A DNA stretch of 64,000 nucleotides. Origin: an uncultured Gammaproteobacteria bacterium (lineage in GTDB: Bacteria > Patescibacteriota > Microgenomatia > Levybacterales > UBA12049). The stretch's first letter is position 1. Each line of letters begins with the position of its first letter. The translations under genes were made by a program, and so were the position numbers. The stretch lies in contig CAZCYO010000002.1 of NCBI GenBank assembly GCA_964503265.1, positions 130,604-194,603 of the forward strand, read 5' to 3'. Under the pieces are notes generated by a model. It saw nothing but the letters and a program-made list of their open reading frames with translations. It made no database searches and was not told the origin of the DNA. Positions 16,113 through 45,982 of the stretch are shown in pieces.

Positions 16113-18011
16113 TTATTTTCTCACACCACAACACCTGCCTACCCAGGCGTCACTTCCCCATTTGGTGGAATACTGGTCAACACATGAATTTACTTTTCCA
16201 CAGCCACATTCTTCAAATACACACGTGTAATTTCCTTTTTTACAGCTCCCACTAAATCCTCTATTTGGAGACTCCCCACATGCATTTACTGGAGGTTGTG
16301 GTTGTGTTACTACTTGTACTGGTGATACAACAGCTGGGTCGGTAGACGGAATCTTCGTGTCAACTTTTGGTGTTGCTGGTTGAGATGGTGAGTCTTGTGG
16401 AGGAAAATCTCGCCACGGATTAGGTTTGGTAGTCCATTCAGCTGCGGCATTTAACGCACAAACCCAATCTCCCTCAGTACATGTTGAGCGAATACAATTT
16501 TCCCCAGTTCCTGCATCTTCAATACCTGATGTAACAGATGGATTTGGACATTTATTCGTACCACCTTGTGTCGTATACACAGGTGTTATCTGTGGTATAG
16601 GTTTTTTATTAGATTGTGGACTTCCACCATCAATGGGTACACTTTGAGAAGTCCCAACCAATGAATCAAGTTTGTCATTTATAGCTTTTTGGGAAACAAG
16701 ATTATAATCAGTATACGGATATGTATCGGGGTTATATCCATGTTTTCCACCTCTTCCCATCGCACTTCCTTCTGCTGATCTGAACCAATTCGCATAATGA
16801 CAGCCTTGGAAATATGTTATATCTCCAATAGTTGTTGCCCAACGTTCATCCTTTTGAGCTACATTACTACAATTTGGCCCAAGTGTTATATCATCTTCAC
16901 TAAACCTATCTGACCCATCAGGCTTGGTATATACATACTCATCATATAATCCCATTATATGCCCAAATTCATGTACAAAATTTTTTTCATTTTTAGGATG
17001 ATTCTGTAAAAAAGCTAGTGTTCCATCAATAAATGCACTTCCATCACGCTTCTCTCCATTATATTTATTACTAATAATGACAATTTTATCGTAGGATATT
17101 CCAGCATCAGCTAGTACCGTTTCTGGATTCACGTCACTATTGCACCAAAAAGTCCCTTGATCGTAGTCACAACCCAGATCATCATTGGTGTACCAAAATT
17201 TTTTAAAGTTAATTTGGTCTTGTCGATAAGAAAATGGAGCTTTTTGGAGTAAGAAATTAGCAAATCGCTGAGCATCAGACTCAAATGCTTGCTTTCCAGA
17301 ATCACTTTTTTCATAGTGGTCACTAATAAAAACAATCTGAAGTTTATTATTCTCAGCAGCAAATGCATGATGTACCCATGAGAAAGAATGCAAAAGGGTT
17401 GTGCGTACAGAATCAATCAAACCCGTAGGTAATAACGATAGCTCTTTTCTTTCAGTTTCAGATAAATGATATACATTACTTACGACGTTGTTATTAGTTA
17501 CAATTTGGATACTAGCAATACTCTGAAGATATGGAGTTACAAGTACCATATTTCTTTTAGATAGTAACAAGGTTCCGCTATTTGCATCAGATTCTGCAGA
17601 AAGCATGGTATACACATTAAATGGTTGTTTGTACAAAAGTGTTCCTTGTACATCTCTATATTCAACCGTATACAACACAGTCGTTTTTGCATATTTAGGA
17701 ACAGTACCTTTCGATAATGAAACATTTTGAATCAAAAAAAGAGGTGTTTGTTTTTTGTCGTACGTTAGTGAAAGATGCAGGGTTTTATTAGGATACATGG
17801 TGATAAGAGATTGTTGCTGAGACACCTGAGGAATTGCTGTGACAGATTTTTTCGTTGGTGATGAGAACGATGACAGTAATACAATCCCTACACATAGGAA
17901 AATACCGATAGTAAGTATCAGCCATTTGAATGTACGGAGTTTCGTAAAAAATAGTTGGCTTCTCGTTTCGTTTTCTTGAGAAAAATTTTCGTATGTATAA
18001 CGTTGTTCCAT
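16113..18011 (-). CDS. secreted/membrane-anchored zinc metallopeptidase-like protein (HEFGHIMGLYDEY; M64-like motif) with Cys-rich C-terminal module
   Basis: N-terminal TM/signal anchor, HExxH...GLxDEY motif, and a C-terminal 60 residues holding about 10 Cys. Confidence 0.5.
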   Translation of the reverse strand: MEQRYTYENFSQENETRSQLFFTKLRTFKWLILTIGIFLCVGIVLLSSFSSPTKKSVTAIPQVSQQQSLITMYPNKTLHLSLTYDKKQTPLFLIQNVSLSKGTVPKYAKTTVLYTVEYRDVQGTLLYKQPFNVYTMLSAESDANSGTLLLSKRNMVLVTPYLQSIASIQIVTNNNVVSNVYHLSETERKELSLLPTGLIDSVRTTLLHSFSWVHHAFAAENNKLQIVFISDHYEKSDSGKQAFESDAQRFANFLLQKAPFSYRQDQINFKKFWYTNDDLGCDYDQGTFWCNSDVNPETVLADAGISYDKIVIISNKYNGEKRDGSAFIDGTLAFLQNHPKNEKNFVHEFGHIMGLYDEYVYTKPDGSDRFSEDDITLGPNCSNVAQKDERWATTIGDITYFQGCHYANWFRSAEGSAMGRGGKHGYNPDTYPYTDYNLVSQKAINDKLDSLVGTSQSVPIDGGSPQSNKKPIPQITPVYTTQGGTNKCPNPSVTSGIEDAGTGENCIRSTCTEGDWVCALNAAAEWTTKPNPWRDFPPQDSPSQPATPKVDTKIPSTDPAVVSPVQVVTQPQPPVNACGESPNRGFSGSCKKGNYTCVFEECGCGKVNSCVDQYSTKWGSDAWVGRCCGVRK

Positions 18012-23226: not shown

Positions 23227-23255
23227 TTGACAACATAATCATTCTTGGATATAAT
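23227..23255 (+). promoter_or_regulatory. consensus sigma70-type promoter (TTGACA-17 nt-TATAAT) for the his leader
   Basis: TTGACA at 23227-23232 and TATAAT at 23250-23255, with exact 17-nt spacing. Confidence 0.6.
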
Positions 23256-23262
23256 TTGGTTA

Positions 23263-23510
23263 CAATTTAGAAAAAGCGTTACTACTGGAGTCACGATCCA
23301 GGACCCACTTCGCTAATCCCGATATATTCGAGACTAAAGATACGAAGGTGGGACGATGATCTTCAAAATAAGATACGGAAGTTTAACCGTTAAATTGAAC
23401 AGACGATGTCGCGTAAGCGGAGTCGCCACTAAGAGCTTTTTGGAGTAATCCGAAAAGAAAAAGGATGGGACCGCGAGAGGTCCTTTTTTATTACCTCTCG
23501 TTCCTTTTTC
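23263..23510 (+). promoter_or_regulatory. probable T-box riboswitch leader (His-specific) controlling hisG-hisE-hisS
   Basis: T-box-like sequence AAAAAGGAUGGGACCGCG at 23457-23475 against consensus AAUUAGGGUGGNACCGCG. The UGGG bulge is complementary to the CCCA 3' end of tRNA-His. The downstream 8-bp helix is mutually exclusive with it, and a CAC triplet sits in the loop of an upstream hairpin (CUGGA-GUCACGA-UCCAG). Confidence 0.55.
23474..23510 (+). terminator. leader terminator (CGAGAGGU...ACCUCUCG + UUCCUUUUUC)
   Basis: 8-bp perfect helix followed by a U-rich tract; the 5' strand overlaps the 3' half of the T-box sequence. Confidence 0.5.
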
Positions 23511-28129: not shown

Positions 28130-29035
28130 ATGAATGACTATCGCTACACACAAATCGCTGAACTTGAGGCTAAAATTGAGGAAACTCGAGCACTTCTTGA
28201 AGATCCGACTCTTACAGAACTTGCTGAAGCTGAAATTGCGGAGCTTGAAGCTCAGAAGAAAGCTATCGAAGATACGATGATTCCTGATCCAGCCGAAGAA
28301 GCAGCTGATCTGGACAATCGAAATATTATTCTTGAAGTAAAAGGTGCAGCAGGTGGAGATGAAGCGACATTATTCGCACAGGAACTACTTCGCATGTATG
28401 TACGATACTGTGAACTTAATGGCTTCAAATTTGAACAGGTTGACGATCTCGTTATCAAAATCGCTGGAAAAGAACCATTTAAAACATTTAAATATGAATC
28501 TGGAGTTCACCGTGTTCAGAGAGTTCCTAAAACTGAGAAAAAAGGACGAGTTCACACTTCCACAGCCACAGTGTCAGTTCTTCCAGAACTTGAAGATATT
28601 GATTTACATATCAGCCCAGATGATATCGAATTTGCAGCGTTTCGTTCAGGCGGACATGGCGGACAGAACGTAAATAAAGTATCGACCGCCGTTCGAATCG
28701 TTCACAAACCATCAGGAATTGCTGTGGTATCTTCATCTGAACGATCTCAAATCCAAAATCGCGAAATCGCTATGGCGCTACTTCGTGCGAAGTTATGGGA
28801 AATTAAAGTGACTGAGCAAAACGAAGAAATCGCATCACTCAGATCCACACAAGTTGGACGAGGAAATCGCTCTGAAAAAATTAAAACATATAACTTCCCC
28901 CAGGACCGCCTCACTGATCACAGACTTGGCAAATCATGGGGAAATCTCCCAGTCATTATGGACGGATATATTCCAGAAGCTGATTACTCACAACTTGAAG
29001 AAGGTGCACCGTTAGTAGACTCTGAAGAAGAGTAA
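28130..29035 (+). CDS. prfA: peptide chain release factor 1 (tripeptide motif PKT)
   Basis: GGQ motif (RSGGHGGQNVNK). The RVQRVPKTEKKGRVHTS region matches the RF1 pattern with PKT; no SPF (RF2) motif. Confidence 0.85.
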   Translation: MNDYRYTQIAELEAKIEETRALLEDPTLTELAEAEIAELEAQKKAIEDTMIPDPAEEAADLDNRNIILEVKGAAGGDEATLFAQELLRMYVRYCELNGFKFEQVDDLVIKIAGKEPFKTFKYESGVHRVQRVPKTEKKGRVHTSTATVSVLPELEDIDLHISPDDIEFAAFRSGGHGGQNVNKVSTAVRIVHKPSGIAVVSSSERSQIQNREIAMALLRAKLWEIKVTEQNEEIASLRSTQVGRGNRSEKIKTYNFPQDRLTDHRLGKSWGNLPVIMDGYIPEADYSQLEEGAPLVDSEEE

Positions 29036-29552: not shown

Positions 29553-31046
29553 ATGCTGCCTCGTAAACTTTGCTTTGTTGACTTAGAAACCACTGGTGGA
29601 TCATCTAGCCATGATCGTGTGATTGAAATTGGGATGGTTCGAGTAGAAGACGGAATTATTACGAAAGAGTACCAGTCCCTCATCAATCCCGAAAAACATA
29701 TTCCTCCAGAAATTGAAAGACTAACAGGAATCACTGAACGAGATGTAGAAAAAGCTCCTCTTTTTTATGAGATTAAGGATGAAATTTTAGAGACACTTGA
29801 AGATTGTTTCTTCGTCGCACATAATGTGCGCTTTGACTATGGATTCTTAAAAAGTGAATTCGCTCGGCTTCACATGCCATTTTCACCAAAACATTTCTGT
29901 ACGGTAAAACTGTCCCGCCTCCTCTATCCAACAGAAAGACATCATAATCTCGATGCTGTTATGACACGTACGGGAATCTCATGTGAGAATCGCCATCGTG
30001 CATTTGATGATGCGAAGGTGCTGCATGAATTTTTCCAACATTCACTCAAACAATTCCCTCTCACTGTTTTAGAAAAAGCCGTAAGTATCGCGATGAAAAA
30101 ACCATCTCTCCCGACCAAACTTAATCAAATTGATCTCGACAAACTTCCAGAAGCACCCGGGGTTTATATTTTTTATGGAAAATCCGAATCTCAAAGTTCG
30201 AAATTCGAACTTAAGGAACCACTGGTTCCTTTATATATCGGTAAAAGTATTAACCTTCGGGAACGTGTACTTTCACATTTCGCAGCAGACATCCGAAATA
30301 GTACGGAGATGAAAATAACTCAACAAATAGAACATATCGACACCATTCAGACAGCGGGTGAACTGGGAGCGCTCTTCACTGAATCTGCCATGATTAAAAA
30401 AATGCTTCCTCTCTATAATAAAATGCTTCGCCGAAAACAAGAATTAGTTGCGATAAAACATACCGTAGATGAGCATGGGTATGAAACAACGTATTTAGAG
30501 CCAATACATACAGTAGATCCGCAAGAGTTTTCAACGTTTCTTGGTTTTTTTCGCTCACGAAAACAGGCAAAAGACTATTTAACAACGGTAGCAAAAGAGC
30601 ATACTCTTTGTGAAAAATTGCTTGGACTAGAAAATACGAAGACTGAGTGCTTTAACTACCGTCTAGAACGCTGTAGAGGCGCTTGTATGGCACGTGAACT
30701 TCCTATCGCATACAATATGCGGTTTGTCTTGGCATTCTCTGGTATGAAAGTGAAACCATGGCCATTTACTGGACCCATTATGATTGAGGAAAAAAATGAT
30801 TGGTCAGGGAAAAGCGAGTATTTCTTAATAAAAGATTGGTGTTATTTAGGCAGTATTATATATGATGAGGATGGAACAGAGAAAAAAACGATGACTAATA
30901 CTTTGGAATTTGATGTAGATATATATAAAATCCTTCTTAGATTTATGCAATCTCCGAAAAATCTAAAAACAATCAAACATCTTTCCAAAGAACAGGCATC
31001 AGATTTAGAATCACAACTGTCATCTAAGAGGTTACTTCCTTCTTAA
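29553..31046 (+). CDS. DEDDh (DnaQ-like) 3'-5' exonuclease fused to a GIY-YIG nuclease domain (Cho-like architecture)
   Basis: N-terminal CFVDLETTGG...HNVRFDYGFL...HRAFDDAKV exonuclease motifs I-III; central GVYIFYGKSE...LYIGKSINLRERV GIY-YIG motif. ATG at 29553 preferred over the TTG at 29535. Confidence 0.7.
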   Translation: MLPRKLCFVDLETTGGSSSHDRVIEIGMVRVEDGIITKEYQSLINPEKHIPPEIERLTGITERDVEKAPLFYEIKDEILETLEDCFFVAHNVRFDYGFLKSEFARLHMPFSPKHFCTVKLSRLLYPTERHHNLDAVMTRTGISCENRHRAFDDAKVLHEFFQHSLKQFPLTVLEKAVSIAMKKPSLPTKLNQIDLDKLPEAPGVYIFYGKSESQSSKFELKEPLVPLYIGKSINLRERVLSHFAADIRNSTEMKITQQIEHIDTIQTAGELGALFTESAMIKKMLPLYNKMLRRKQELVAIKHTVDEHGYETTYLEPIHTVDPQEFSTFLGFFRSRKQAKDYLTTVAKEHTLCEKLLGLENTKTECFNYRLERCRGACMARELPIAYNMRFVLAFSGMKVKPWPFTGPIMIEEKNDWSGKSEYFLIKDWCYLGSIIYDEDGTEKKTMTNTLEFDVDIYKILLRFMQSPKNLKTIKHLSKEQASDLESQLSSKRLLPS

Positions 31047-31249
31047 CGAGCACTTCCAGAAGCGCTTACTTGTGTGACAGCAGAACCACCATTTGATACA
31101 ACCATTTGACCAGTTAAGAGAACGACCACAATCATAACGATAAATGCTCCACTTGCTAAGATAATCATTGTTAAATCATCTGTTCCATGTCCCATGTGTT
31201 TTAAATGTCCTCCACTAGTAGTAGCTTTTTTTACAACTTTCTTTTTCAT
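31043..31249 (-). CDS. small membrane protein with His-rich N-terminal segment (GGHLKHMGHGTDD) and one TM helix
   Basis: 68 aa; strong SD GGGAGGUGA 6 nt upstream; sits directly behind conserved leader copy 1. Confidence 0.45.
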   Translation of the reverse strand: MKKKVVKKATTSGGHLKHMGHGTDDLTMIILASGAFIVMIVVVLLTGQMVVSNGGSAVTQVSASGSAR

Positions 31250-31410
31250 ATCTATTCACCTCCCTTCACCTTGATTATTTCTTAAATTACTATTTCAAGG
31301 GATGTCGCAACGTCTTTAGATTTGCGACGCTTTCACCTTAATTATTTAATCTATAAATAGTAAGTGATGCCGAAATAGTACGAAAGTACTTTTTGGCGCC
31401 TCTTCCTACA
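31250..31410 (-). promoter_or_regulatory. conserved ~160-nt 5' leader, copy 1 (candidate cis-regulatory RNA or riboswitch-like element)
   Basis: About 93% identical over ~160 nt to 45442..45602; both copies abut a minus-strand start codon. Contains a duplicated module AAUAAUYAAGGUGAARG(G) carrying the SD. Confidence 0.5.
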
Positions 31411-31548
31411 GTAATAATAATCTATATATTTAGCATACAATACTGACTGAGGAGGTTGTCAAGAATTAATTGAATATGTTACCTTTTCAATCTCGTCGAA
31501 GAAGATAAATGTATGAAGGAAACTAAACGCTCATTTCTAAATGCTAGC

Positions 31549-45027: not shown

Positions 45028-45441
45028 TTACATCCCTTTTGGCTGAAGCATAGCGATACGATTTCCTTCTGTATCGATAATACCTGAGAAGAGACCTACT
45101 CCTGGAATATCGTCAGGTTTTTCAGGTCCGCCCATTCCCCCAAGTACTTTTCCACCTGCTGCTGTCACAGCTTTCATCGCTTCATAAATGTCATCAACTG
45201 CGACGACGACTGATGGATGCTGAGCTTCCCCACCTCTTTTATAAAACCCACCATTAATCGCACCTGGTGTAGTAGAACGATTATCTGTACTTGTCTCTGT
45301 GGTCATCACTGTTACGTAATTCCCCATCTCAGGACCCAACTGGTGCATCCCCCATCCGAAAACTGTCTCGTAGAATTTCTTAATCCGATCCATATCATCA
45401 GCTGGTATTTCAAAATGAACTACTGGATTTTTTTTATTCAT
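45028..45441 (-). CDS. VOC-family (glyoxalase/bleomycin-resistance/dioxygenase fold) protein
   Basis: MNKKNPVVHFEIPADDMDRIKKFYETVFGW... VOC pattern. ATG at 45441 with SD GGGGGUGA is preferred over the upstream GTG at 45462. Confidence 0.7.
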   Translation of the reverse strand: MNKKNPVVHFEIPADDMDRIKKFYETVFGWGMHQLGPEMGNYVTVMTTETSTDNRSTTPGAINGGFYKRGGEAQHPSVVVAVDDIYEAMKAVTAAGGKVLGGMGGPEKPDDIPGVGLFSGIIDTEGNRIAMLQPKGM

Positions 45442-45602
45442 ATATGATTCACCCCCCTTCACCTTGATTATTTCTTAAACTACTATTTCAAGGGATGTCG
45501 CAATATCTTTAGATTTGCGCCCCTTTCACCTTGATTATTTAATCTATAAATAGTAAGTGATGCCGAAATTGTACGAAAGTACTTTTTGGCGCCTCTTCCT
45601 AC
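45442..45602 (-). promoter_or_regulatory. conserved ~160-nt 5' leader, copy 2 (candidate cis-regulatory RNA)
   Basis: Near-identical to 31250..31410. Transcript begins ...GUAGGAAGAGGCGCC... and ends ...AAUAAUCAAGGUGAAGGGGGGUGAAUCAUAU-AUG. Confidence 0.5.
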
Positions 45603-45661
45603 ATTAGTTATATATTGTAATAGAAATATTATTTTTTTTGTAGCTCTTATAGAAATAAGCT

Positions 45662-45704
45662 ACAAAAATAAGCCAGGGCTCTTTTTAAAAGAGTGGCCTG
45701 GCTT
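45662..45704 (-). terminator. rho-independent terminator downstream of the GlsB-family gene
   Basis: AAGCCAGGCCACUCUUUUAAAAAGAGCCCUGGCUU followed by a U-rich run on the minus strand. Confidence 0.45.
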
Positions 45705-45715
45705 ATCATAAAGAC

Positions 45716-45982
45716 TTAGAGAGCTCTTCGTCCTGCGATCGCTTTCCAAACGAAAATAGCGATACATGCTCCGATTACTCCGACGATAATCCCTGGAACA
45801 CTTAGTCCGTTATCGGTAGGTGTTGCTGGAGAGATGAAACCAAGAAGTGTCGTTCCTAAGAATCCTCCTATGATTCCAGCTACAACGTTAGCGACCCATC
45901 CCATCTCACCGTCAGTTTTCATGACCATGGATGCGATCCATCCGACTAACCCTGCTAATACTAATGTAATAATTAAACTCAT
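45716..45982 (-). CDS. GlsB/YeaQ/YmgE-family stress-response membrane protein
   Basis: 88 aa, Gly-rich TM helices (VAGIIGGFLGTTLLGF...IIVGVIGACIAIFVWKAI). Confidence 0.7.
   Translation of the reverse strand: MSLIITLVLAGLVGWIASMVMKTDGEMGWVANVVAGIIGGFLGTTLLGFISPATPTDNGLSVPGIIVGVIGACIAIFVWKAIAGRRAL

Follow-up and report, generated by a model that had tools for sequence, protein, structure and literature searches.

A conserved leader common to two unrelated genes as a candidate gene-control element in Patescibacteria

A leader of about 160 bases stands in front of two unrelated genes in a 64-kb stretch of Patescibacteria DNA (the window, meaning the whole stretch analysed) and, judged from its sequence, is a genuine new candidate gene-control element. 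It appears to be a genuine lineage-restricted element of the 5′-UTR type, which would be present in the mRNA. We tentatively propose that the leader tunes translation initiation, mRNA lifetime or both through competing segments that resemble the Shine-Dalgarno (SD) sequence and its complement, and that it would thereby couple the two genes.

Patescibacteria (Candidate Phyla Radiation) have tiny genomes with few recognisable regulators. Their control of gene expression has been described as largely unexplored, with riboswitches mentioned only as a prospective engineering tool (PMC11665869). A covariation-supported leader coupling two unrelated genes would offer a testable handle on post-transcriptional control in these bacteria, and its presence at both loci suggests that an uncharacterised VOC enzyme and an uncharacterised His-rich membrane peptide are functionally linked. 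With its SD-like box and clamp hairpin joined to a mimic of the 16S rRNA 3′ end, the module may also serve as a compact, portable translation-control part. Should the element prove to be no more than a stabiliser or standby leader, it would be a modest addition to a well-known class.

RESULTS

Two unrelated genes carry nearly identical leaders

Global alignment of the minus-strand leaders at 45442..45602 and 31250..31409 yields 151 identities in 162 columns, or 93%, in agreement with the original prediction of two similar leaders 14 kb apart (Table 1). The locus of copy 1 had been assigned correctly, and its end is here revised from 31410 to 31409; copy 1 spans 160 nt because of a 1-base deletion near the ATG. 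Identity sets in sharply at GUAGGAAGAGGCGCC (also given as (T)GTAGGAAGAGG) and ends at the start codon in both copies. Outside these boundaries, the further-upstream DNA and the coding regions of the two loci are dissimilar, as had been claimed, and this arrangement favours an element of the transcribed-leader type over a duplicated gene.

Within the 64-kb window there are exactly two occurrences of the 32-mer GTAGGAAGAGGCGCCAAAAAGTACTTTCGTAC; 100 shuffles contained none. The leader is also repetitive within itself: the motif AAAUAAUCAAGGUGAA[A/G]GG is present twice per copy (four matches, compared to 0.03 expected), which bears out the predicted internal duplication whose second unit carries the SD. 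Leaders within one genome are 80–97% identical, compared to 70–72% for orthologous leaders between genomes.

A covariance model of the element, R1, scored 91 bits on 45517..45602 (copy 2) and 88.6 bits on 31324..31409 (copy 1), and these two leader loci were its only matches in the window. Applied with all filters off to fetched loci totalling about 75 kb, to which lineages that carry the element contribute about 36 kb, the model found orthologous leaders only. The many intergenic copies of a dispersed repeat were absent from both the window and these loci, and over the DNA searched the element is not a dispersed repeat.

Table 1. Coordinates of the leader copies, their parts and the neighbouring features within the window
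Feature	Position	Strand	Remarks
Leader copy 2, 161 nt	45442..45602	-	GUAGGAAGAGGCGCC to last base before the VOC-gene ATG
Leader copy 1, 160 nt	31250..31409	-	In front of the 68-aa membrane-protein gene
Purine box 0 (GUAGGAAGAGGC), weak SD-like, without start codon behind	45591..45602	-	Copy 1: 31398..31409
Hairpin 1, GCCAAA-A-GUAC uuuc GUAC-A-UUU-c-GGC	45562..45590	-	Copy 1: 31369..31397
Pyrimidine block AUCACUUACUAUUU, anti-SD-like	45548..45561	-	Copy 1: 31355..31368
Spacer end and purine box 1 (UAAAUAAUCAAGGUGAAAGGGG), first repeat unit of the original prediction	45520..45541	-	
Hairpin 2 of the degenerate module (GGCGCAA..UUGCGAC)	45497..45521	-	Copy 1: 31304..31328
Degenerate block 2 (AUCCCUUGAAAUAG)	45483..45496	-	Complementary to UCAAGG of both repeat units and to the G-rich SD
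Second repeat unit and true Shine-Dalgarno (AAUAAUCAAGGUGAAGGGGGGUGA)	45449..45472	-	Copy 1: 31256..31279
VOC/glyoxalase-fold gene, 137 aa from ATG	45028..45441	-	Pfam PF00903, PF22677
68-aa His-rich single-pass membrane protein gene	31043..31249	-	No known family
Promoter-like TTGACA-N19-(TG)TATGCT	31432..31462	-	Ends ~25 nt 5′ of leader copy 1
Two strong hairpins 3′ of the upstream Transgly_assoc (GlsB-like) gene	45637..45707	-	MFE -31.9 kcal/mol, z = -5.95

A repeating module contains a covarying hairpin

A reading of the ~160 nt as one aptamer is not supported, and the leader instead consists of repeats of a ~67-nt module. Each module is composed of a purine box, a clamp hairpin, a pyrimidine block and an A/U spacer, followed by the next box or the ribosome binding site (RBS). 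The purine box has the consensus AGGAA(A)G.GGC, kept in all relatives, and the spacer terminates in AAU(A/U)AAUC. Depending on the lineage, one or two modules stand in tandem; the window leaders have one good module and one degenerate module. The conserved positions are the single-stranded flanks and two closing pairs; stems and loops differ in sequence among the compared leaders, and their loop and junction nucleotides show no conservation.

We evaluated hairpin 1 across the homologous leaders and found that 7 of its 12 aligned pairs have compensatory changes on both sides, with 92.8% of cells paired. For the whole tested structure, which includes both helices, slid controls were 34–51% paired and 0 of 500 shuffles attained the observed covariation score; the test covers about 5 independent module sequences, drawn from 3 close lineages, which also served to derive the structure. 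RNAalifold independently predicted the same hairpin, together with invariant G-C and G.U closing pairs that join the box GG (45592-45593) to UC in AUCAC (45559-45560). An invariant C.A mismatch at the hairpin foot is flanked by these G-C and G.U pairs.

The second module matches R1 weakly (17.5 and 14 bits) and has lost the conserved block. Its hairpin, described originally as GUCGCAA-N11-UUGCGAC, is a perfect 7-bp stem in copy 1 (GUCGCAA/UUGCGAC at 31304..31328); in copy 2 the sequence is GGCGCAA..UUGCGAC, and a G.A mismatch interrupts the proposed stem. Two further helices were considered and rejected. Pairing of purine box 0 with the AUCAC block showed no covariation beyond composition. The long-range helix between GGCGCC and GGGGCGC/AGCGUCGC was discarded, both segments having better local partners: the GCC of GGCGCC pairs with a GGC 24 nt downstream, in a hairpin that covaries in relatives. 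The substitutions between copies that had been read as paired opposite GGCGCC are just local-stem differences of the second hairpin, and this part of the original prediction is not supported.

The purine boxes are predicted to hybridize weakly to the 16S rRNA tail, and the true SDs far more strongly. All duplexes were calculated with a generic 16S 3′ end, which may not be the host's own; the resulting free energies are -8.6 kcal/mol for purine box 0 (top 1.8% of window 12-mers), -11.0 kcal/mol for purine box 1, and -8.6 to -11 kcal/mol for the purine boxes overall (top 0.3–2% of window 12-mers), compared to -15 to -21 kcal/mol for the true SDs, including -19.8 kcal/mol in copy 2 and -20.7 kcal/mol in copy 1. 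The true SD of copy 2 is located 7 nt before the ATG at 45439-45441. In both leader sequences, no ATG, GTG or TTG lies 5–12 nt downstream of the purine boxes.

The pyrimidine block AUCACUUACUAUUU resembles the 16S rRNA 3′ end GAUCACCUCCUU. It is identical or near-identical in the window, L026 and L056, and the L059 variant AUCUCAUACUUUUU is complementary to the RBS of L059 itself.

Pairing between the block and the SD is predicted in isolated segments, with SD accessibility not below that of controls

The block and the downstream purine tract were 74% paired across leaders, and two pairs had changed on both sides (U/A in L026 vs A/U in L059 is one instance). In every isolated segment from block to AUG, the minimum free energy (MFE) structure has the block bound to the GGUG tract of its cognate SD. 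Complementarity exists between the CCCUUGA segment and each of the two UCAAGG units, and likewise between CAUCCCUU and AAGGGGGGUG, consistent with the alternative partners proposed earlier. Pairing of CAUCCCUU with AAGGGGGGUG is seen in the isolated segment, and block 2 pairs with unit A in the full-length MFE structure. In the predicted fold of the window lineage, the block prefers the decoy purine box over the SD as its partner.

Across full leaders, the predicted probability that the SD is unpaired ranged from 0.26 to 0.62, compared to 0.34 to 0.44 in shuffled-leader controls. At 37 °C, SD accessibility was predicted to fall below the shuffled controls in no leader, and it exceeded them in window copy 2 and L056 (0.62 vs 0.40–0.41). 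Higher temperature raises the predicted accessibility in L059, L029 and L056, and leaves that of window copy 2 flat (0.60–0.63). Cognate block/RBS duplexes were marginally better than shuffles (p-values of 0.04 to 0.36) and no better than non-cognate pairs. The SD-sequestering switch envisaged in the original prediction is retained as far as block-SD complementarity goes; the sequestration itself is not borne out by these comparisons with shuffled leaders.

The leader is kept in front of the same two genes in related lineages

Related uncultured Patescibacteria have homologous leaders before the same two genes; the VOC gene is preceded by one in 3 lineages and the 68-aa membrane-protein gene in 2. 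VOC orthologues of 81% identity (L026/L027) have an element with two modules, and those of 85% identity (L028-L033) have one with a single module. A small-protein orthologue of 77% identity, located in a syntenic 20-kb locus (L059, also L060/L061), likewise has one module. Retention of the leader before the same two genes argues for their co-regulation. Among more distant VOC homologues at 66% identity (L057 and the Bacteroidota-like L058), the module is absent.

In L056, a near-identical strain, box 0 and hairpin 1 are missing as assembled, an unrelated hairpin is found instead, and the rest of the element is kept; the homology breakpoint coincides exactly with a module boundary. Elsewhere, an exact lone copy of the 15-mer ATCACTTACTATTTT is located in L059, 8 nt before the SD of another gene.

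Wider searches returned chance matches. A scan of genome contigs for AAGGTGAA-N-CCCTTGA-N-CAAGGTGAA gave 19 single matches in unrelated phyla, none of them leader-like by blastn. In metagenome contigs, the exact 21-mer GGAAGAGGCGCCAAAAAGTAC had 0 matches, and a degenerate three-part pattern had 21, all attributable to chance; the best-looking of these, L041, lies within a coding region of a virus-like contig, scores only 20 bits against R1 and was rejected. Viral contigs contained 7 pattern matches, 0 of which matched R1, and we consequently reject a phage or mobile origin.

The leader resembles several known systems and matches no known family

When the whole window is searched with Rfam 15 at gathering thresholds, the sole match is a tRNA. 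At E ≤ 10, the region 45380..45720 gives chance-level matches, the best of which (E 0.32) is on the opposite strand, and at E ≤ 1 there is no match in L029, L056 or L060. The original prediction had assigned the leader to no known riboswitch family, and these searches concur. Across the carrying lineages, we found no riboswitch-type aptamer with conserved loop or junction nucleotides; and in the four leader regions scanned, there were neither terminator-like sites nor the alternative intrinsic terminator and anti-terminator structures of a transcriptional attenuator.

Several characterised systems share single features with the element. Guanidine-II (mini-ykkC) is a tandem-hairpin translational riboswitch defined by conserved ACGR loop nucleotides. 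The present leader similarly has short, possibly tandem hairpins directly before the SD, alternative pairing that involves the SD, and small transporter- or detoxification-type genes downstream; however, it has no counterpart of the ACGR loop, its loops and stems vary freely, and it has no Rfam match. ROSE-type thermometers have auxiliary 5′ hairpins, and such hairpins are found here too. As in ROSE and fourU thermometers and anti-SD hairpins, a pyrimidine segment complementary to the SD lies 30–40 nt upstream and pairs imperfectly at low energy, but there is no Rfam thermometer match and the predicted SD occlusion is not above background.

Ribosome standby sites normally have no conserved sequence module, hairpin of their own or anti-SD-like block. 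The leader resembles the standby site of tisB in having a single-stranded, purine-rich segment before a structured RBS, which could hold the 30S subunit until the RBS opens. It differs from tisB-type sites in its conserved module with its own hairpin and anti-SD-like block. Streptococcus pneumoniae BOX elements occur as more than 100 dispersed copies at varied intergenic sites. Our element has in common with BOX its variable tandem units, its hairpins and its position adjoining genes; unlike BOX, it is present at two genes only, in orthologous positions and fused to the RBS.

STAB-SD of Bacillus thuringiensis cry3A is a 5′ mRNA stabiliser with the purine tract GAAAGGAGG (Agaisse & Lereclus 1996, cited in PMC7509114 and PMC12970973). 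The leader has a comparable SD-like tract in its 5′ UTR (GGAAAGGGG, GGAAAGAGG or GGAAGAGG) without a start codon behind it, and it carries extra SD-like copies upstream of the true SD, with the start codon distant. In contrast to STAB-SD, its match to the 16S tail is much weaker (-8.6 to -11 kcal/mol, compared to -15 to -21 kcal/mol for the true SDs), and it always comes with a covarying hairpin and a block of anti-SD type, occurs in tandem and is common to two genes.

DISCUSSION

A proposed model of competing SD-like and anti-SD-like segments

We infer three things: the element is part of the transcript, it influences translation or mRNA stability, and SD-like and anti-SD-like segments compete within it. 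In the model, one or two modules directly before the RBSs would couple the expression of the VOC enzyme and the His-rich membrane protein. The purine boxes would be weak docking sites for the 30S subunit that have no start codon, much like STAB-SD or standby sites. Mimicry of the 16S 3′ end would fall to the AUCNC block, with either the box GG at the hairpin foot or the GGUG tract at the true SD as its partner, and the hairpin would act as a clamp that decides which pairing wins. Intrinsic or kinetic folding, temperature, 30S occupancy and a trans-acting factor are candidate triggers; a small-molecule ligand ranks last as the least likely of them.

Alternative mechanisms

Several other mechanisms were weighed. 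The module could be a platform for a trans-acting RNA-binding protein or small RNA that reads AGGAAAG.GGC and AUCACUUACUAUUU at the foot of the clamp hairpin and co-regulates both genes. Most of the sequence conservation indeed lies in the flanks, and the hairpin varies freely in sequence; modules number one or two as is usual for arrays of protein-binding sites, and the lone exact 15-mer of L059 precedes an SD as well. Hairpin sequences follow the lineage and not the gene, as would fit their co-evolving with a common partner, but gene conversion between loci 12–14 kb apart explains this concerted evolution equally well. AGGAA boxes are found in the L026 and L059 leaders; in the window lineage, GGA-type (CsrA-like) motifs are not kept, boxes 1 and 2 reading AAGGUGA, and none of the boxes lies in a hairpin loop. 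On balance, we consider such a platform unlikely.

A metabolite aptamer is a less likely reading of the leader than competing SD-like and anti-SD-like segments. It strikes us as decidedly improbable that the module forms the aptamer of a new class of riboswitch or RNA sensor restricted to a Patescibacteria clade. The hairpin foot (G-C, G.U and C.A) and the flanking blocks would then bind a small molecule or metal ion, and the VOC detoxification enzyme would be switched on together with the His-rich membrane peptide. We give the same low standing to a new small-molecule or ion riboswitch along the lines of the original prediction, in which hairpin and flanks form the aptamer and CCCUUGA or AUCAC would be the SD-sequestering platform. 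The response to metals or toxic compounds suggested there is wholly conjectural. A conserved structured leader before two unrelated genes with no Rfam match is what such a class would present, as are the pairings available to the SD, the invariant non-Watson-Crick positions at the hairpin foot (C.A between G-C and G.U), and target genes plausible for detoxification or metal handling. However, loop, bulge and junction nucleotides are not conserved, in contrast to the known cores that bind ligands, hairpin 1 is swapped for an unrelated hairpin in L056 (as assembled), module copy number differs among close relatives, the window's second module has no conserved block, and the distribution is very narrow and leaves out the 66%-identity VOC homologues. 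If true, this would be among the first native ligand-sensing RNAs defined in ultrasmall bacteria.

An RNA thermometer, or intrinsic SD occlusion, would have the block mask the SD in a metastable hairpin that temperature or ribosome load opens. The block variants are each complementary to their own SD (UCACUU/AGGUGA, CAUCUC/GAGGUG, CAUCCCUU/AAGGGGGGUG and UCAU/GUGA), their imperfect pairings of -5.6 to -11.8 kcal/mol are typical of thermometers, and predicted accessibility responds to temperature in three leaders (L059, L029 and L056). The probability of this mechanism is nonetheless low: no leader has its SD less accessible at 37 °C than shuffled controls, copy 2 is essentially independent of temperature, Rfam offers no thermometer match, and VOC and membrane-protein genes are not classical heat-shock genes.

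The conserved blocks could alternatively act at the DNA level, each module being a promoter (TACTAT as -10 and the hairpin-loop TTYGTA as -35), an operator palindrome or both. TTYGTA-N16-TAYTAT can be read in most modules, L026 module 1 has TTGTAA-18-TATTAT with an upstream TG, and the L059 15-mer sits where the -10 of the next gene is expected. Yet the hexamers are poor (3/6) and promoter-like matches do not exceed shuffle expectation, with better and conserved promoters upstream of the modules. Moreover, compensatory changes, including C-G to U.G, preserve a hairpin whose arms are located outside the promoter hexamers, and an operator would keep its sequence beyond mere pairing. DNA-level action is accordingly very improbable. 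Most doubtful of all is a non-functional or selfish repeat that arose by recent segmental duplication, as a gene-conversion tract or as a BOX/MITE-like intergenic repeat. Its modular tandem build with variable module number, the concerted evolution within genomes, the L056 breakpoint at a module boundary, and the short-read unitigs of the same organism that break inside the element are all what such a repeat would leave. Against it, the element abuts the RBS at both genes, its orientation unchanged, even among lineages whose orthologous proteins are just 77–85% identical; there are no more copies in the 64-kb window or in ~36 kb of carrier lineages, and none in viral contigs; terminal inverted repeats and target-site duplications are missing; and the hairpin is maintained by compensatory change.

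Downstream genes and transcription signals

The two downstream genes are those named in the original prediction, a VOC-family gene and a gene for a small His-rich single-pass membrane protein. No leader peptide or uORF was accepted: the leader lacks an ATG, and no short ORF recurs consistently from lineage to lineage. Sigma-70 promoter sites numbered 0–2 per leader region, within shuffle expectation, and the only in-module match was in L026 module 1. Readings of the conserved blocks as sigma-54, sigma-B or ECF-type promoters were rejected by eye, their hexamers or spacing being unfit.

Upstream of the leaders, the AATTAATTCTTGACAA and TGTATGCTAA of the promoter-like site before copy 1 are the same in the window and L059/L061, although the spacer and flanks have diverged. 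A plausible TTTAAA-17-TACAAT is present upstream of the L029 leader. On the copy 2 side, a strong structure of terminator type lies at 45637..45707; the first of its two hairpins is followed by a U-run, and the hairpin pair separates the VOC transcription unit from the upstream gene. Some gene callers choose a GTG at 45462 as the start of the VOC gene.

A repeated leader of a small Patescibacteria clade

The leaders of the VOC/glyoxalase gene (copy 2) and the 68-aa His-rich membrane-protein gene (copy 1) are identical in 151 of 162 alignment columns. The data thus bear out the original prediction of a ~160-nt repeat upstream of two unrelated genes, with small corrections only: copy 1, predicted to span 31250..31410, was confirmed as a repeat and shortened to 160 nt. 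The similarity begins at (U)GUAGGAAGAGG and stops at the start codons, and no relatedness between the two copies was found in the DNA upstream of the leaders or in the coding regions. The window has exactly two occurrences of a 32-mer from the leader's 5′ end (0 in 100 shuffles), and the predicted internal duplication is confirmed by four occurrences of AAAUAAUCAAGGUGAA(A/G)GG in the window against 0.03 expected. Searches of the 64-kb window by blastn and by covariance model with all filters off found no third copy. The organism's short-read unitigs (Logan SRR12487046) are interrupted within the repeat, which is what a sequence with two or more copies should produce.

At gathering thresholds, Rfam 15 matched a tRNA as its sole hit in the whole window and did not match the leaders; a permissive scan of the leader region (E ≤ 10) returned only chance-level matches, mostly on the wrong strand, and three homologous leaders from other assemblies had no Rfam match at E ≤ 1. 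The general reading of an undescribed cis-regulatory leader is supported: this is a genuine, hitherto uncatalogued, covariation-supported 5′-leader element, and it belongs among the structured bacterial 5′-UTR regulatory elements, a known kind.

Scanning the genome, metagenome and viral collections for DNA patterns yielded nothing beyond chance matches, and leader homologues were gathered by protein look-ups. Related leaders accompany VOC orthologues that share 81% identity in L026/L027 (JGI, with contigs of up to 1.5 Mb) or 85% in L028–L033 (ENA). They also precede the small-protein orthologue (77% identity) in L059, which spans 20 kb and is syntenic with the window, and in L060 and L061, as well as the small-protein gene in L056, from a strain with 95.6% identity to the window. 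In other lineages, VOC homologues sharing 66% identity were without the leader. The window lies on a 341-kb contig of an NCBI MAG; for its YchF, the best named relatives carry the label 'Patescibacteria group bacterium' (70–75% identity). The element is restricted to a small Patescibacteria clade, where two unrelated genes have it fused to their RBS. Among solved structures, the VOC-fold enzyme is nearest to uncharacterised proteins or glyoxalase I, and the His-rich membrane peptide has no family. Public VOC gene calls (P0001, 144 aa) start at GTG 45462, within the leader's purine tract; the true start is more likely ATG 45441, judging from a strong SD 7 nt upstream and orthologues that begin MNKK.

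Positions of the leaders and of other features in the window and related loci
Feature	Position	Strand	Context
Leader copy 1	31250..31409	-	adjoins ATG of 68-aa membrane-protein gene 31043..31249
Leader copy 2	45442..45602	-	adjoins ATG of VOC-fold gene 45028..45441
Predicted promoter of small-protein gene	31432..31462; L059 9850..9885	- (window)	TTGACA, TATGCT conserved
Two back-to-back strong hairpins	45637..45707	-	after Transgly_assoc (GlsB-like) gene, upstream of copy 2
Promoter-like TTGACA-N17-TATAAT	about 23229..23257	+	ahead of hisG T-box
Divergent T-box leader	23313..23508	+	precedes histidine-biosynthesis gene hisG, ATG at about 23553
Class-I peptide release factor (PCRF + RF-1 domains)	28130..29035	+	301 aa; L059 orthologue 303 aa
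Variant 5′ end of small-protein leader	L056 1..80		JGI 3300045313; about 95.6% identical to window 30419..31376
Stand-alone 15-mer ATCACTTACTATTTT	L059 about 16945..16959	-	inside 3′ end of CntK_N-like gene

Modular structure of the leader

Comparison of the relatives shows the leader to be built from a ~67-nt repeating module, consisting of a purine box AGGAA(A)G.GGC, a hairpin with outer and inner stems, a conserved block AUCACUUACUAUUU (AUCAUAUACUAUCU in L029, AUCUCAUACUUUUU in L059), an A/U spacer with the 3′ end AAU(A/U)AAUC, and then either the next purine box or the true RBS and ATG. There is one module in L029 and L059 and two in L026. The window leaders each carry one good module (91 and 88.6 bits with R1, the covariance model built for the module) and, after it, a degenerate module (17.5 and 14 bits) in which the block has drifted to AUCCCUUGAAAUAG. 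The internal duplication therefore represents the 3′ ends of successive modules. The predicted GUCGCAA/UUGCGAC hairpin is that of module 2, and is perfect in copy 1 but not in copy 2.

In an alignment of six module sequences, 7 of the 12 pairs of hairpin 1 (the module 1 hairpin) are changed on both sides (for example GCC/GGC, GCCA/UGGC, UUGAGA/UCUCAA, CUGAGA/UCUCAG and C-G to U.G), and 92.8% of its cells are paired. The complete tested structure, with both helices, was 34–51% paired in slid controls, and none of 500 shuffles matched its observed covariation score. RNAalifold independently predicted the same hairpin, adding two invariant closing pairs (G-C and G.U) across a C.A mismatch, which join GG of the box with UC of AUCAC. 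Support is moderate for the helix between the block and the next purine tract (74% paired, two double changes), and a longer helix between the first purine box and the block showed no covariation. The long-range GGCGCC pairing proposed originally is unsupported, as its GCC forms the 5′ arm of hairpin 1.

Competing Shine-Dalgarno pairings

Against a generic 16S 3′ tail, duplexes of the purine boxes reach −8.6 to −11 kcal/mol (top 0.3–2% of window 12-mers), compared to −15 to −21 kcal/mol for the true SDs; the boxes are therefore weak SD-like sites, and no start codon follows any of them. The block AUCACUUACU is similar to the 16S 3′ end (GAUCACCUCCUU) and complementary to SDs of the GGUGA type. 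When the block-to-AUG segments were folded in isolation, the block paired in each with the GGUG tract in the cognate SD (UCAU/GUGA, UCACUU/AGGUGA, CAUCUC/GAGGUG and CAUCCCUU/AAGGGGGGUG), with energies of −5.6 to −11.8 kcal/mol and z-scores of only −0.6 to −2.7. Stability was no greater for cognate block/RBS duplexes than for non-cognate ones. In full-length leaders, predicted SD accessibility was not below that of shuffled-upstream-leader controls (0.26–0.62 versus 0.34–0.44), and was above it in window copy 2 and L056. The window's MFE folds leave the true SD open, pairing the module 2 block with the upstream decoy UCAAGG and the module 1 block with the second UCAAGGUGA unit. Consequently, of the predicted SD-sequestering switch, the competing SD/anti-SD geometry is built in, but a default 'off' state is unsupported.

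Transcription context and alternative mechanisms

Upstream of copy 1, AATTAATTCTTGACAA ... TGTATGCTAA is kept in the window and in L059/L061, but the 19-nt spacer and the flanking sequence are not, the pattern expected if a real promoter lay 25–50 nt before the module. The spacer between TTGACA and TATGCT is an unusual 19 nt in both lineages, with TG directly before the −10 hexamer and no conserved dyad seen within it; over-long spacers are characteristic of activator-dependent (MerR-type) promoters. A TTTAAA-17-TACAAT site lies upstream of the L029 leader. The hairpin pair upstream of copy 2 (MFE −31.9 kcal/mol, z = −5.95) has a U-run after the first hairpin and A8 after the second, and could terminate transcription from both directions. 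The hairpins are predicted to end the preceding gene, making the VOC gene its own transcription unit, with only about 35 nt left for a promoter. No terminator-like site was found inside any leader scanned. As judged from sequence, this promoter and terminator context supports a transcribed leader and rules out classical transcription attenuation.

The best-supported mechanism, which we advance tentatively, would be post-transcriptional tuning of translation and/or mRNA stability. The SD-like boxes would compete with a block mimicking the 16S 3′ end, and the clamp hairpin would organise this competition, in a blend of STAB-SD or standby leaders with anti-SD hairpins. A binding platform for a trans-acting factor is an unlikely alternative to such tuning. 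A true riboswitch, as first proposed, is improbable and unsupported: the hairpin sequence varies freely, module number is variable, the distribution is narrow, and there are no conserved loops or junctions. An RNA thermometer is just as improbable. The leader has little chance of being a promoter or operator itself. A functionless or selfish repeat is the least probable reading.

Evolution of the modules and other observations

Module 1 is 97% identical between the two genes within the window, and L026b and L059 are 80% identical, compared to 70–72% between lineages. Within a genome, the leaders of two different genes resemble each other more than orthologous leaders do across lineages, and the hairpin sequence tracks lineage, not gene. 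This pattern points to either gene conversion between loci 12–14 kb apart or co-evolution with a shared partner.

In the L056 variant, the first ~40 nt (the first purine box and hairpin 1) are swapped for an unrelated perfect 9-bp hairpin, ACUGAAAUG..CAUUUCAGU. The upstream gene end differs and the breakpoint coincides exactly with the foot of hairpin 1; from the AUCAC block onward all sequence is retained. Either hairpin identity is irrelevant or the short contig is chimeric; the variant could reflect true module swapping or an assembly chimera at the repeat. In L059, the exact 15-mer of the conserved block also stands alone, 8 nt upstream of the next gene's AAGGAGGAG-N8-ATG and with no hairpin in front. 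For the sequence examined, such an occurrence has a chance probability of about 1e-3 to 1e-4, which hints that the block may be functional by itself.

With Rfam RF00230 the hisG T-box scores 39.9 bits (E = 1.3e-7); the gathering score, 93, is far higher, and a standard scan therefore misses it. It contains the conserved box GG(A)UGG(G)ACCGCG as well as a hairpin and T-run resembling a terminator. The window's class-I release factor is clearly shorter than the usual ~360 aa.
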